Notes under the pieces: generated by a model
Databases searched by the model: none
What the model was told of the DNA's origin: nothing
Seen by the model: only the letters and a program-made list of their open reading frames with translations
Source of the DNA: Nitrospirota bacterium
GTDB taxonomy: Bacteria > Nitrospirota > CAKKRA01 > 9FT-COMBO-42-15
Direction of reading: 5' to 3'
DNA: 29,675 nt
Assembly: GCA_016214425.1 (NCBI GenBank)
Contig: JACRON010000146.1
Coordinates: 1 to 29,675, forward strand
Shown here: positions 16,874 to 29,675 of the stretch, in pieces
Layout: the number at the start of each line of letters is the position of its first letter
Position numbering within the stretch: the stretch's first letter is position 1
Position numbers and translations under genes: made by a program

Positions 16874-18433
16874 ATGAGTAAGAATATTAATGCAATTGAT
16901 GAATTAAACAAAAAGATATTAGAGCTCACAACCCTTTATGAGATTACTAAAAAGCTGGTCTCTTCCTTAAATCTTGAGTCAATATTGAATTCAACAATGG
17001 ATGTTCTTGCAAATAAGATGGGGATGAAAAGGGGCACCCTGACAGTGCTTGACAGAGAAACAAAGGAATTAAAGATTGAGGTTGCACATGGCCTTACCAG
17101 TGAGGAGAAGGAAAGAGGGAGGTATAAAATAGGAGAGGGTATTACAGGAAAGGTGCTTGAGACAGGCGAGCCCATGATAATTCCAGATATCGGCAAGGAG
17201 CCGAAATTCCTCAACAAAACAAAGTCACGCGGTGACATTAAAAAAAGCAATATATCTTTTATCTGTGTACCTGTTAAGGTTCATAATGATGTTGTTGGCG
17301 CGCTGAGTGTTGACAAACTCTTTTCAGAGAATGTTTCTTTTGAAGAGGATGTAAGGCTTTTGACTATTATTGCCTCCCTTATCGGCCAGGCAATAAAGAT
17401 TAATCAGATAGTGGAGAAGGAAAGACAGGAGTTAATTGATGAGAATATCTATTTGAAGCAGGAGCTCAAAACAAAATACAGGCTAAAGAATGTAATTGGC
17501 AATAGTGAAAAGATGCTTGCGGTTTATGATGCAGTGGAAAGGGTGAGCAAGAGCAACGCAACTGTTCTATTGAGGGGAGAGAGCGGCACAGGAAAGGAAC
17601 TGATTGCACGGGCAGTACATTACAACAGCCCAAGGGCAGACCAGCCGTTTATTAAGGTAAATTGCGGCGCCATTCCTGAGACGCTGCTTGAAAGCGAGCT
17701 CTTTGGCCATGAAAAGGGCGCCTTTACCGGAGCAATCCAGCCGAGGGTCGGCAGATTTGAGCTTGCTGATAAGGGAACAATCTTTTTAGATGAAATAGGG
17801 GATATCTCTCTGCAGATGCAGGTTAAACTTCTGCGTGTCCTTCAGGAAAGAAAATTTGAGCGCCTTGGAGGAGCTAAGACTATAAGCGTTAATATCAGGA
17901 TAATCGCTGCTACAAACAGGAACCTGGAAAAGGCAGTTGAGGCAGGCGCATTCAGAGAGGATTTGTACTATAGGCTGAATGTCGTGCCAATATTTATGCC
18001 TTCATTAAGTGAGCGCCGCGAAGATATCCCGTTATTGATAGATTATTTTCTAAAAAGGTTTAATAGAGAAAATAGCAAGAAGATAAAGCTGTCGCCTGCT
18101 GCAATTACAAAACTGATAGAGTACCACTGGCCAGGAAATGTCAGGGAATTAGAAAATTATATAGAACGGATTGTAATTATGTCTAATAAAAATCTGCTGC
18201 AGATAGAGGATATATCTCTGCCCAGAGCAGAGAGTGCAACCTCAATAAAAACTAGTGGAATTGAATTCTCTGCAAACAGTTCATTAATAAAAACTGTAGA
18301 AGAAATGGAAAGACAGAAGATTACAGAGGTATTGAAGATATGCGGCGGAATACAGGCAAGGGCTGCAAAGACATTGGGAATCACGCCGCGCCAATTAGGC
18401 TACAAGTTAAAAAAATACAAAATTAACAACTAA
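16874..18433 (+). CDS. nifA: NifA-family sigma54-dependent activator (GAF-AAA+-HTH)
   Basis: GAF ([14 protein letters not shown]), Walker [15 protein letters not shown] loop, [31 protein letters not shown] like NifA. No nif structural genes in the window. Confidence 0.85.
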
Positions 18434-18483
18434 ATGCACTGCCTGTAAATAATCTATTCAGTTTTACATTCCGACAATTTATT

Positions 18484-18518
18484 CCTACAAAAATGTATGA
18501 ATCCAGCAAAAATGTAGG
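18484..18518. promoter_or_regulatory. Tandem palindromic candidate activator sites (UAS) of the urt-ure promoter
   Basis: CCTACA-AAAA-TGTATG (18484-18499) and CCAGCA-AAAA-TGTAGG (18503-18518). Confidence 0.7.
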
Positions 18519-18572
18519 ATTGATTTGTCCATTCCATATCAAAAATCTCTGATAAATCAAATAGATAGTTTT

Positions 18573-18588
18573 TGGCATGGTTTTAGCA
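18573..18588 (+). promoter_or_regulatory. sigma54 (-24/-12) promoter of the urt-ure operon
   Basis: TGGCATGGTTTTAGCA, GG (18574-75)-N10-GC (18586-87). Confidence 0.8.
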
Positions 18589-18739
18589 TTTATCTTTAGT
18601 AAGCAATATGCAAGGTACAGGATTGTAGAGGGAGATATAGGAAAGGGGGGATGAAAAGGTCTTATGAGGGATAGTTATAAAGAGGGATTTCTGTTTAGAT
18701 GATTTAATCTTGAAAATTTCTTTATTAAAGGAGGAGAAG

Positions 18740-19957
18740 ATGAAAGGGTATAGATTGTTGACAATCATTATAGCTATGTTCTTAGTATTTACAGGCATGC
18801 TTTTGCCAGAATCATATGCAGCAGAGCCTATTAAGGTGGGTGTATTGCATTCACTTAGCGGGACGATGTCCATAAGCGAGGTGGCAGTAAAGGATGGAAC
18901 ATTAATGGCAATTGAGGAAATCAATGCAAAGGGCGGTCTTCTCGGCAGGAAGATTGTGCCTATTGTAGAGGACGGGGCATCTGACTGGCCGACCTTTGCA
19001 GAGAAGGCAAAGAAGCTGATACAGCAGGACAAGGTTTCAGTTGTATTTGGCTGCTGGACATCTGCAAGCCGCAAGGCTGTGCTTCCAGTATTTGAGAAAT
19101 TAGACCATCTCCTTTTTTATCCTGTGCAGTATGAGGGGCTTGAGGCATCAAAGAATATTGTATACACAGGCGCGGCGCCAAATCAGCAGATTATGCCTTC
19201 TGTTACATGGCTTTTAAAACAGAACAAGAAAAAATTCTATCTTTTAGGCTCTGACTATGTATTTCCAAGGACTGCAAATCTAATAATAAAGGCGCAGCTC
19301 AAGGCAGAGGGTGGCGCACTCGTTGGCGAGGAGTATACCCCGCTTGGCCATACAGAATACAGCACAGTTATAAACAAGATAAAGGCAGCAAAGCCAGATG
19401 TTATATACAATACTTTAAATGGTGACAGCAATGTGGCTTTTTTCAAGCAGCTCAAGGCAGCAGGGATTACAGCAAAGGATATGCCTGTGATGTCTGTAAG
19501 CATTGCAGAGGATGAATTAAGGGGCATTGGCGCTGATATAGCAGAAGGGCATCTTGCAGCATGGAACTATTTTATGAGCATGAGCACCCCTGAGAATAAG
19601 GTCTTTGTTGAGAATTACAAGAAGAGATATGGAAAAGACCGCGTTACAGACGACCCTATTGAGGCGGGATACTTTGGCGTATACCTCTGGGCAGAGGCAG
19701 TAAAAAAGGCAAAGTCTACTGATGTGGACAAGGTTCGTGAGGCTGTGAAGGGTGTCAGCTTTAATGCCCCAGAAGGTAAGGTGAGCATTAATCCTGTAAA
19801 CAACCACACATCCAAGATTGTTCAGATAGGCAAGGTGAGAAAGGACGGCCAGTTTGACATACTCTGGAGCACTGGCAAGCCTGTGGAGCCAGAGCCTTTC
19901 CCTGCGCTTGTTTCTGATAAAAAGGTAGTAGCGCCAGGGAATATAGTGAAGAGATAA
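18740..19957 (+). CDS. urtA: Urea ABC transporter substrate-binding protein
   Basis: [52 protein letters not shown]. Start at ATG 18740 after AAGGAGG. Confidence 0.95.
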
Positions 19958-19959
19958 TA

Positions 19960-27667: not shown

Positions 27668-28276
27668 ATGTCAAGGCCTGTAAGGATCGGGGTTGGTGGG
27701 CCTGTAGGCTCTGGAAAGACAGCGCTGATAGAGCAGCTCTGCAAGAGGATGGCCTCTTCCTTCTTTATTGCAGTGGTTACAAATGATATTTATACAAAGG
27801 AGGATGCAGAGTTTCTGATAAGGGCAGGGGCATTGCCGGCAGAGAGGATTATTGGCGTTGAGACAGGCGGCTGTCCCCATACAGCAATAAGAGAAGACGC
27901 CTCAATAAATCAGGAGGCAGCCAACAGCCTCATTGAAAGATTCCCTGATCTTGATATTATCTTTGTTGAAAGCGGAGGCGACAATCTTGCAGCGAGCTTC
28001 AGCCCTGAGCTTGTTGACAACTGGATATATGTGATTGATGTCTCAGGCGGGGATAAGATACCGAGGAAGGGCGGCCCTGGCATTATGCGATCTGACCTGC
28101 TTGTAATAAATAAGACAGACCTTGCTCCCTATGTTGGCGCGAGCCTTGATGTGATGGATAGGGACGCAAGAAAAATGAGGGGCGAGAGGCCGTTTATATT
28201 CACAAACATAAAGGATGGCAATGGCATTGATGCAGTTATCAACTGGATTAAAAAAGATGTCCTATTCATTGAATGA
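27668..28276 (+). CDS. ureG: Urease accessory GTPase UreG
   Basis: [37 protein letters not shown]. Confidence 0.97.
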
Positions 28277-29126
28277 TAATGAGCTGCAGGGGATTGGAAA
28301 GCATGGCAGGCTCAGGCTATGCTTCACAAGGCAGGATGGCAAAACTATCCTCAACGACTCATTTTCAACAATTCCCATGTGCGCGTTTCAGCCCTTTTAT
28401 TTAGATGAGACAGGCTGCGCCTATTCATACATTGTCAACCCCACATCAGGCCTTGTTGGCGGTGACAAGATTGAGATAGGGATAACCATTGACAACAATG
28501 CCCATGCCTTTATAACTACACCCTCTGCAACAAAGGTATATAAAAGCTCTAAGGATTTTTCACATCAGGATACTGAAATCTTTGTAAAGAAGAATGGCAT
28601 CCTTGAATATCTTCCAGGATATGTCATTCCATTTGCAGGTTCCCTATACTCACAAAAGATGAAGGTGTATATGGAGGAGTCTTCCACTGCCTTTATACTT
28701 GACTCCTTTACAACTGGCAGGAATGCGAGAGGCGAGCATCTCTCCTTTAAGGAATACAGAAGCAGGACAGAGATAATATACTGTGATGAGCCTGTTGTTA
28801 CAGAGAGGATCCTCCTTAGGCCGGATATAGAGGATTACGATGACCTTGGTTTTTTTGAGTCATTCACAGCAGTGGCAGTGTTATATTTAATCTTTGATAA
28901 TTTATCCCTGCAATGCCCTCTTATTGCTGATATAAAAGGTCTGCTTGATAAGGCGGATGATATAATCGGAGGCGTCTCTGCGCTGCCGTCAAATGGCATT
29001 CTTGTGCGATTTCTCAGCAAAGGCGTCATTCCGTTAACAAGGATTGTATATTCAATCTTCCCTATTTTCAGAAAGAGGGTATTATGCCTTGATACCACTT
29101 CCTCTTTAAACAGGTTTTTCCTGTAA
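28257..29126 (+). CDS. ureD: Urease accessory protein UreD/UreH
   Basis: [41 protein letters not shown]. Start uncertain (28257 or 28269). Confidence 0.9.
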
Positions 29127-29152
29127 ATCCAAAAAAATGTCTTAGATTAAAA

Positions 29153-29188
29153 CCTACTTTTTTGTAGAATTTTATACGAAAATGTAGC
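29153..29188. promoter_or_regulatory. Tandem palindromic candidate activator sites (UAS) of the nrfH promoter
   Basis: CCTACT-TTTT-TGTAGA (29153-29168) and TATACG-AAAA-TGTAGC (29173-29188); same motif as 18484-18518. Confidence 0.68.
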
Positions 29189-29294
29189 TCATTCATAATT
29201 GTCTTCTCACCGTAATTTCATATCCAAACAGCAGCTTATCTTAAAAACATTGTAAAATTAATTAGTTAACTGTTATCTCAGTGTTTGATATGTC

Positions 29295-29310
29295 TGGCAC
29301 GGATATTGCT
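29295..29310 (+). promoter_or_regulatory. Consensus sigma54 (-24/-12) promoter
   Basis: TGGCAC-GGATA-TTGCT, GG (29296-97)-N10-GC (29308-09). Confidence 0.9.
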
Positions 29311-29323
29311 TTTACATAATTGC

Positions 29324-29675
29324 ATGAAAAAAATTACAATCAGCCCACGCGGATTAATACAGAAAAGACCCTTTGGAAGATTTTCAAAGATAATACTCAT
29401 ATTCGGTTTTGCCGCAGTCTTGTTCCTGCCGCTGCTGCCATTAACCTTTAAAGGTTCGCTGTTGTTAAATGATAAACCTGAATTTTGTGTTTCATGCCAT
29501 ACAATGAGAAAGGAATATAATAACTGGTCTCATTCTGCGCACAGGAACTGGGCAGCATGCAGCGACTGCCATGTTCCCCAGCAGACAATTGTTACAAAAC
29601 TGGCAGGGAAATTGAGGGATAGTCTGAATCACGGATACGCATACGCTTTTAAGAAGGTCCCTGACCACATCAGGA
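29324..29675 (+). CDS. nrfH: NapC/NirT-family membrane multiheme cytochrome c, NrfH-type; 3' partial
   Basis: Manual translation (absent from the ORF track): N-terminal TM IILIFGFAAVLFLPLLPL, then KPEFCVSCHTM...WSHSAH...AACSDCHVP...LNHGYAY. Two CxxCH motifs within the window. Confidence 0.85.
   Translation, partial: MKKITISPRGLIQKRPFGRFSKIILIFGFAAVLFLPLLPLTFKGSLLLNDKPEFCVSCHTMRKEYNNWSHSAHRNWAACSDCHVPQQTIVTKLAGKLRDSLNHGYAYAFKKVPDHIR

Follow-up and report, generated by a model that had tools for sequence, protein, structure and literature searches.

We analysed a 29,675-nt window, contig C1 of a Nitrospirota metagenome-assembled genome (MAG) from a groundwater metagenome (1.82 Mb in 273 contigs, completeness 70.9%), which carries a gene for a NifA-type sigma-54 activator followed by a urea uptake and urease operon with its own PII gene and by nrfH. 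Our results indicate that the window is probably part of the nitrogen-limitation regulon of a diazotroph, in which a NifA-type enhancer-binding protein (EBP) would act over nif, nrfHA-amtB, an HTH8-amtB-glnK-glnB-nadE operon and an acquired urt-PII-ure cassette with a PII brake of its own. A NifA-family regulator very probably shares its regulon with the urea and nitrite scavenging genes. Gene calls were checked against Pfam and NCBIfam profiles, applying the equivalog cutoffs. In what follows, C numbers are contigs of the MAG, G numbers relative genomes, f numbers Nitrospirota families and L numbers extracted loci.

According to the Pfam and NCBIfam assignments, the gene order is nifA-type EBP (16874-18433), urtABCDE (18740-23615), P-II gene (23636-23962), ureABC (23978-26381), the accessory genes ureE, F, G and D (26450-29126) and nrfH (29324-29675, incomplete at the window end), all on the plus strand. 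UrtA (18740-19957; 603.8 bits, cutoff 492.75), UrtD (22163-22936; 361.1 bits, cutoff 304.1) and UrtE (22923-23615; 325.5 bits, cutoff 285.8) pass their NCBIfam equivalog models, and urtB (19960-20859) and urtC (20883-21965), between urtA and urtD, encode BPD_transp_2 permeases by Pfam; together they identify a UrtABCDE urea ABC transporter. A sigma-54-type promoter, TGGCAT-N5-TAGCA, lies at 18573-18588 in front of urtA, and a second one, TGGCAC-N5-TTGCT, at 29295-29310 in front of nrfH, within a spacer of 158 nt; the latter is conserved in G003, G001, G004 and C232. Both are preceded on the same strand by an upstream activator sequence (UAS), or enhancer: CCTAC-A5-TGT ... GC-A5-TGTAGG at 18484-18518, with two ACA-N4-TGT-like units 19 nt apart, and CCTAC-T6-TGT-N10-ACG-A4-TGTAGC at 29153-29188, which is orthologous to the nifA-nrfH spacer of relatives. 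The promoters have the GG-N10-GC core and one or two mismatches to the TGGCAC-N5-TTGCW consensus, and rpoN is found on contig C30 (441.9 bits, cutoff 277.35). The observation, comprising gene content and order, the promoters and the paired enhancer, is thus confirmed far beyond chance. In this respect, the initial annotation was right to place a NifA-type activator directly 5' of a sigma-54 promoter for urtABCDE-PII-ureABCEFGD and to see a second such promoter, with the same upstream motif, before nrfH.

The assignment of the activator to the NifA family, also made in that annotation, is supported by both profiles and phylogeny. The 519-aa protein consists of a GAF domain (residues 32-174), a sigma-54 AAA+ domain (207-373) with the GAFTGA loop, and an HTH_8 domain (474-515). 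It scores 585.8 bits on the NifA model TIGR01817 (cutoff 528.85), the next-best family being AtoC with 405 bits against a cutoff of 714, and it is the sole EBP of the MAG to exceed the TIGR01817 cutoff among about 20 EBP genes. In a tree of 65 EBPs it falls in the NifA-family clade (support 99), apart from 10 other full-length EBPs of the MAG, which form the outgroup; its subclade contains the nif-adjacent NifAs of family f2 together with the NifAs of Bradyrhizobium, Gallionella and Psychromonas. Orthologs with 94%, 90% and 81% identity are encoded in G003, G001 and G004, all at the aroB-nifA position. The activator has three Cys in total. Throughout the phylum, NifA-family genes neighbour nif genes (f2), amtB/glnB (f4, f12, f13) or aroB (f1, f8). 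The pilQ-aroC-aroK-aroB-nifA order, which occupies 8610-16824 of the window upstream of nifA, is conserved in families f1 and f8, with more pil-like ORFs 5' of pilQ in G020, and in both families nifA is attached to a housekeeping block and lies far from the nif genes.

Further information about the reach of the regulon was obtained from the enhancer. Four sigma-54 promoters share it: those of urtA, nrfH, nifH and the HTH8-amtB-glnK-glnB-nadE operon. Ahead of all four, it is a composite of about 35 nt, CCTAC-N6-TGT-N10-ACA-N4/5-TGTAG, in which the invariant unit is (T)ACA-N4-TGT(A) and the two units are 18-21 nt apart. At the common spacing of 20 nt, the centre of the composite equals the classical NifA site TGT-N10-ACA. 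This centre is perfect before nrfH in C232, G003, G001 and G004 and at the nifH promoter of G016, and it has one mismatch at the nrfH promoter of the window and at the nifH promoter of the MAG. A strict genome-wide pattern (paired AC-N-W4-TGT units, 18-21 nt start to start) returned six loci in the 1.82 Mb of the MAG, versus 0-2 in controls consisting of the reversed genome and five local shuffles. Four of the six sit 57-137 nt 5' of a sigma-54-like site, and they are the four promoters named above; a random site would have a sigma-54-like match within 260 nt with a probability of about 0.025, as estimated from 348 candidates in the MAG. Each of five family genomes has 1-4 occurrences of the pattern (controls 0-1), nearly all of them 5' of nrfH, amtB, or an 816-aa ORF followed by an HTH8 gene. 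The enhancer is conserved 5' of nrfH in G003, G001 and G004 and 5' of the amtB/glnK cluster. ACA-N4-TGT units also stand 5' of nifH in G016, G031, G039 and G006, and G031, G039 and G006 have nifA immediately 5' of the nifH promoter. This co-occurrence with sigma-54 promoters, nifH included, is our main argument for a NifA-type protein reading the enhancer, and we infer that such a protein binds it. A first motif guess, the 7-mer AATGTAG near sigma-54 candidates, was merely about two-fold enriched, and the paired-unit model was used instead. The plain classical TGT-N10-ACA was rejected as the sole description because the unit spacing varies between 18 and 21 nt while ACA-N4-TGT stays constant.

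The transcripts predicted from the two window promoters have different leaders. The urtA leader (18589-18739) is about 140 nt long and purine-rich, with a comparably long counterpart in L167, and matched no Rfam family in a scan of 16000-29675 at E <= 0.1. The only Rfam match in that range is 5_ureB_sRNA (RF02514) at 24817-25109 on the minus strand, antisense in the 5' part of ureC (62.9 bits, gathering score 40, E 1.3e-14), a match that may be due to the conservation of urease coding sequence alone and not to an antisense RNA. The -12 GC of the nrfH promoter lies about 15 nt 5' of the nrfH ATG (29324) and no Shine-Dalgarno sequence is present, so the nrfH mRNA is predicted to be nearly leaderless. 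The same geometry is found in G003 and G001, whereas in G004 AGGAGG occurs in a leader of about 95 nt.

The genes beyond the window end can be read from contig C232, which overlaps the last 1000 nt of the window. Its order is the end of ureD, nrfH, nrfA (Cytochrom_C552, 450 bits), amtB, and then a second UAS with a sigma-54 promoter preceding HTH8-amtB-glnK-glnB-nadE, an operon for a 92-aa HTH_8-only protein, AmtB, two GlnB/K-type PIIs (glnK and glnB) and a glutamine-dependent NAD synthetase. The second amtB, at 2162-3465 on the minus strand of C232 (L095), appears as two ORFs of 151 and 301 aa, owing either to a frameshift or to faulty assembly. Stand-alone HTH_8 proteins, 63-92 aa long, recur as the first gene of sigma-54 nitrogen operons or beside them, at 3519-3797 on the minus strand of L095, at 4973-5164 and 15545-15751 of L166 and at 9428-9637 of L157. 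The protein from C232 is 52% identical over 50 aa to the DNA-binding domain of the window NifA (E 2e-9), the other EBPs of the MAG giving E 2e-5 or worse, and such small proteins may bind the same enhancer as feedback competitors. In relatives (L157, from G003:C250, 6933-9383; L159, 657-3143), the enhancer and a sigma-54 promoter are followed by an ORF of 816-828 aa and then by the HTH8 gene. This ORF has an N-terminal GNGMAG dinucleotide-binding motif, is absent from C232, and might be NAD(P)H nitrite-reductase-like.

The initial annotation had suggested that the organism is possibly not a diazotroph, and the rest of the genome speaks against this. Contig C184 ends within the first 25 codons of a canonical NifH, preceded by a perfect TGGCAC-N5-TTGCT promoter and the shared enhancer. 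Contig C51 carries nifI2-fdxN-nifB-moeB-like-nifV, with a short-form nifB, a nif-specific ferredoxin III (109.3 bits, cutoff 80.55) and only the start of nifV; it begins inside a PII with a 29-residue T-loop insertion, 80% identical to the second PII of the nif cluster of G016. The same-genus genome G001 has nifK-nifEN-nifI1-nifI2 on a 5.5 kb contig, the same-family genome G004 has nifEN-nifI1-nifI2, and the cluster in other families of the phylum reads (nifA)-nifH-nifD-nifK-nifEN-nifI1-nifI2-(fdxN)-nifB. The genome thus appears to hold its own nifI1 and nifI2 in a nif cluster. The genome search for nifHDK proposed in the annotation was answered in part, by the nifH start on C184. A full nifH was not found in the assemblies of any of the five family MAGs searched; as the nif genes of G001 and G004 lie on short contigs, this reflects fragmented assemblies and not loss. 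By its gene content, the window organism is predicted to be a diazotroph. Since both the MAG and G001 carry nif genes, we regard the activator as the resident nif regulator with a wide regulon and not as a remnant.

How the urea genes came to lie beside nifA is suggested by the relatives. In G003, G001 and G004 the order is pilQ-aroC-aroK-aroB-nifA-nrfH-nrfA-amtB, with no urt or ure genes in between, and the nifA-nrfH spacer measures 164-169 nt in G003 and G001. The nifA-urt-nifI1-ure-nrfH order, whose conservation in related genomes the initial annotation had proposed as a check, is therefore not shared by these three. From its CCTAC element on, the ureD-nrfH spacer of the window is orthologous to the nifA-nrfH spacer of the relatives; the nifA-urtA spacer is not. 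A 9-nt repeat, CCTGTAAAT, starts both window spacers at the points where both align to the ancestral spacer, with the left copy at 18442-18450 and the right copy, overlapping the ureD stop, at 29120-29128. It occurs three times in the window (0.43 expected), with the two same-strand copies at the cassette borders, which suggests a target duplication or microhomology. The cassette measures 10.7 kb and has a GC content of 45.4%, against 39.4% in the left flank and 41.1% in the genome, and its GC3 is 0.45-0.58 versus 0.35-0.43. No urtA was found in 32 relatives (families f1-f8 and f10-f15), and a urt-type PII was found in only one of 401 sampled genomes of the phylum, covering 162 genera. On these grounds the urt-PII-ure block is a horizontally acquired cassette inserted in the nifA-nrfH spacer. 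The adjacency of nifA and urt reflects the insertion site of a mobile cassette and is not a designed regulator-target pair.

Once resident, the cassette seems to have accumulated host elements. A MITE-like dispersed repeat of about 170 nt occupies the urtC-urtD gap (21970-22138, strand not assigned), a gap that in L166 and L167 is 36 nt or absent. At least 15 further copies are scattered over other contigs of the MAG (78-95% identity), and its word depth in the metagenome is extreme. The ureC-ureE gap holds a REP-like hairpin repeat of about 37 nt (GTCATTCCCGC...GCGGGAATC; 26407-26443, strand not assigned), with at least 12 copies of 92-100% identity on other MAG contigs and likewise extreme word depth. 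A word similar to this hairpin repeat is present in the spacer of G004. In run X1, word depth over the cassette is about 50, versus 110-230 at nifA and nrfH, and unitigs end close to each junction; this fits, as weak evidence, a population with the insert in some strains only. The runs listed as containing the locus include no RNA run.

Seven further cassette copies were found, all collinear, with 62-86% identity in the Urt proteins and 67-86% in UreC. Their carriers include a JGI metagenome, a Nitrospirae MAG, Desulfoglaeba alkanexedens, the spirochaete Candidatus Haliotispira prima and a contig whose PII is assigned by NCBI to Omnitrophica. In the Nitrospirae MAG (L167/L168, 1-15337), the cassette is divergent from an adjoining nifHDK-nifEN, and the 1.2 kb between them contain two small ORFs without annotation. 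In other phyla the cassette carries its own promoter and PII without an adjacent nifA. L166 and L167 have sigma-54 promoters with ACA-N4-TGT units 5' of urtA, and no sigma-54 promoter was seen 5' of urtA in L169 and L170. From the first two, it is plausible that the cassette arrived already compatible with the host regulon.

The PII gene is a constant part of this cassette. Its ORF was called at 23612-23962, and homologs put the real start at 23636, which gives a protein of 108 aa (Pfam P-II, 92 bits). It reaches 66 bits on the GlnB and GlnK NCBIfam models, whose cutoffs are 181 and 202, and hence does not belong to either. At least 90 sequence clusters from several phyla have 60-81% identity to it, and the gene lies between urtE and ureA in all eight contexts examined. 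In a tree of 80 PIIs, GlnB/K (100/98) and NifI2 (99/96) form separate groups, and the urt-type PIIs group jointly with NifI1 (95/96). In this joint group, all 22 urt-type PIIs fall outside a clade (100/97) that consists of context-defined NifI1 and close archaeal-type homologs. Compared with GlnB/K, the T-loop lacks four residues, the same deletion as in context-defined NifI1, and the YRGAEY segment of GlnB/K is missing. Invariant residues are Q39, the K58-equivalent, TGxxGDGK and the R101-equivalent, which form the ATP/ADP and 2-oxoglutarate sites of characterised PIIs. There is no second PII in the cassette, and none adjacent in the eight contexts, that could serve as a NifI2 partner; in the phylum, the NifI1-NifI2 pair is located after nifEN. 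The earlier description of this PII as NifI1-type holds for its short T-loop and joint clade, and fails in that it stands outside the NifI1 clade, with no NifI2 neighbour and in no nif operon. It is better described as a putative sister subfamily of NifI1, predicted to function without NifI2 and outside nif operons. We also considered that it might be a recent duplicate of the local nifI1 and rejected this, as it is 51-53% identical to the NifI1 of the genus and phylum versus 60-81% to cassette PIIs of other phyla. These identities indicate that the PII arrived as part of the cassette rather than by recruitment from the local nif operon.

As to what this PII does, the closest lead comes from Synechocystis, where GlnB (PII) has been shown experimentally to control urea uptake through UrtE and where pull-downs also recovered urease subunits (Watzer et al. 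2019, PMC6603209). By analogy, the cassette PII most likely gates urea import under nitrogen sufficiency; because urease subunits were among the pull-down products, it might gate urease instead. Co-folding of UrtE and the PII gave a score of 0.00, which we count neither for nor against an interaction.

Taken together, we hypothesize the following sequence of events. The NifA-type EBP would bind the tandem (T)ACA-N4-TGT(A) units upstream of the sigma-54 promoters. When fixed nitrogen is low, it would activate nifH and the nif genes, nrfHA-amtB, which would supply ammonium from nitrite, and the small HTH_8 gene with amtB-glnK-glnB-nadE. In the window strain only, it would also activate urtABCDE-PII-ureABCEFGD, a cassette that would have joined the existing regulon thanks to its own sigma-54 promoter and host-type enhancer. 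The cassette PII could act as a homomer and as a post-translational brake: once ammonium is back and 2-oxoglutarate falls, it would shut urea import via UrtE/UrtD, or urease. The gene content, the insertion, the shared motif, the phylogenetic placements and the presence of nif genes are direct observations, while the response to nitrogen status, the binding of the motif by NifA and the target of the PII are predictions of the model.

Several observations weigh against the NifA-centred regulon, and some of them point to a different regulator. The MAG has at least 17 EBPs besides the NifA-type one, and any of them is a possible binder. The invariant unit of the enhancer is ACA-N4-TGT and not TGT-N10-ACA, its geometry and variable spacing depart from the classical NifA site, and the urtA enhancer has a centre one base short (TGT-N9-GCA); recognition by NifA is thus deduced from co-occurrence. 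Family f8 keeps nifA after aroB with no nrfH downstream, so the nifA-nrfH adjacency alone is no evidence of regulation, and an enhancer of this type also precedes urtA in the cassettes of L166 and L167, where no nifA lies within 10 kb. C232, overlapping the window at only 93.4% identity, must be a strain variant or a second copy, not its literal continuation. The MITE-like insert between urtC and urtD means that a single 13-gene transcript is not guaranteed. Moreover, nifD, nifK, nifEN and most of nifH are unassembled in this 70.9%-complete MAG.

It could be, then, that another protein, either one of the many NtrC-family response-regulator EBPs in the role of general nitrogen regulator or a small HTH_8 protein, reads the shared enhancer, with NifA controlling only nif or something else and its position being incidental. 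We consider this unlikely, although less so than the other alternatives. The enhancer stands 5' of nifH in several families, in three genomes with nifA directly upstream, and most of its copies have the perfect TGT-N10-ACA centre. No EBP in four family genomes reaches the cutoff of the NtrC equivalog (best 458 bits against 558.6). The operon-borne HTH_8 proteins, for their part, are nearest to the DNA-binding domain of NifA among the EBPs compared.

The initial annotation had proposed that NifA and NifI1 were recruited to form a self-contained switch that responds to low ammonium and governs urea and nitrite, in an organism perhaps no longer fixing nitrogen. In its favour, the MAG has no nifD, nifK or full nifH, the latter being equally unfound in five family genomes, and NifA-family genes stand beside amtB/glnB, not nif, in G008 and G025 (f4) and in G032 (f13), where nifH was not found. 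However, the nifH start on C184 with its perfect promoter and enhancer, the nifI2-fdxN-nifB-nifV genes on C51 and the short nif contigs of G001 and G004 speak for a fragmented nif cluster rather than an absent one, the PII is nearer to cassette PIIs than to the local NifI1, and the nifA-urt adjacency is not conserved. With a resident nif regulator, and a cassette that has its own promoter and PII in phyla without adjacent nifA, the self-contained switch is largely refuted and we judge it very improbable. It is barely credible that the urt-PII-ure block comes from another organism through mis-assembly or binning: its deviating GC content, its lower word depth in X1 and the lack of any span across 18381-18483 among the listed, short Logan pieces of four groundwater runs would agree with this, but host-specific dispersed repeats are inserted in two of its gaps, the ureD-nrfH junction is seen independently in C232 (a 93% variant), the cassette enhancer matches that of the host, the 9-nt repeat sits at junctions aligned to the ancestral spacer, a second run of the study contains 65% of the words spanning the left junction, and the depth gap is explained by co-occurring strains without the cassette.

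The proposed NifA-centred regulon can be compared with known nitrogen control systems. NifA activates nif promoters together with sigma-54 through the upstream activator TGT-N10-ACA in Klebsiella, Bradyrhizobium and Herbaspirillum. Like classical NifA, the window activator combines GAF, AAA+ with GAFTGA and HTH_8 domains, and its predicted targets, nifH among them, have GG-N10-GC promoters with an enhancer about 60-140 nt upstream and, in most copies, the TGT-N10-ACA centre. It differs in that the site is built of tandem ACA-N4-TGT units flanked by CCTAC and GTAG, in that there is neither NifL nor a Cys-rich interdomain linker, and in that nifA is not beside nif in this family. Moreover, its predicted regulon spans nrfHA, amtB, glnK/glnB, nadE and urt-ure, which are NtrC targets in Proteobacteria. 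The urt and ure operons are usually under NtrC in Proteobacteria, NtcA in cyanobacteria or GlnR in Actinobacteria. The transporter and urease genes are the same here and induction by nitrogen limitation is expected too, whereas the predicted activator is NifA-type and the operon has its own PII. A computational parallel is DVU1949 of Desulfovibrio vulgaris, a one-component sigma-54 activator with a nine-operon nitrogen regulon predicted by comparative genomics (Kazakov et al. 2015, PMC4641369). Both are single-component EBPs, not two-component NtrC, predicted to act over nitrogen metabolism and transport operons, a likeness that is not one of established orthology. The two differ in phylum; there, a separate EBP (DVUA0143) was assigned to nif and no urea genes or nrfHA are included (PMC4641369), while here one enhancer type covers both nif and scavenging genes.

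The cassette PII also has its precedents. NifI1 and NifI2 form the PII pair for nitrogenase switch-off in Methanococcus maripaludis and anaerobic diazotrophs. The cassette PII resembles NifI1 in its short T-loop, its retained nucleotide and 2-oxoglutarate residues and the joint clade, and is unlike it in standing outside the NifI1 clade, in having no NifI2 partner and in never occurring in a nif operon. Like GlnB-UrtE of Synechocystis (PMC6603209), it ties PII to urea uptake, here from the genes alone, and the expected logic is to avoid futile urea hydrolysis and ammonium loss. However, the general GlnB of Synechocystis is encoded elsewhere, whereas here a dedicated, divergent PII lies inside the operon and moves with it.

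In the open-access papers and preprints searched, we found no description of NifA control of urt or nrf in Nitrospirota and none of a PII gene between urt and ure. What appears to be new is a NifA-type nitrogen regulon of global reach, predicted for Nitrospirota, and a PII subfamily of urea operons that seems not to have been described. It is tempting to go further, although with somewhat less than even confidence on our part. The urt/ure PII could be a distinct functional PII class, homomeric and NifI1-derived, travelling with the urea operon across phyla and gating urea import or urease in response to 2-oxoglutarate and ATP. In turn, the Nitrospirota NifA-type EBP could be the global regulator of nitrogen limitation in NtrC's place, over nif, nitrite ammonification, ammonium uptake and urea, with the stand-alone HTH_8 copies possibly serving as feedback competitors.

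In summary, the organism does not seem to be recycling nif regulators after the loss of nif, as a nif-less reading of the window had it. What is assumed about nitrogen control in Nitrospirota and many anaerobes derives largely from Proteobacteria. If our proposal is true, a NifA-type one-component regulator over nif, dissimilatory nitrite reduction to ammonium (nrfHA), amtB/glnK and urea would mean that a central regulon is wired differently. Few signal proteins are as widespread as the PII proteins, and an operon-borne urea PII would add a new class of targets to them and provide a natural case of a sensor moving with its pathway. The locus would also show how an acquired operon can be recruited to a host regulon, through a compatible promoter and enhancer and by landing in the spacer of a regulon member.

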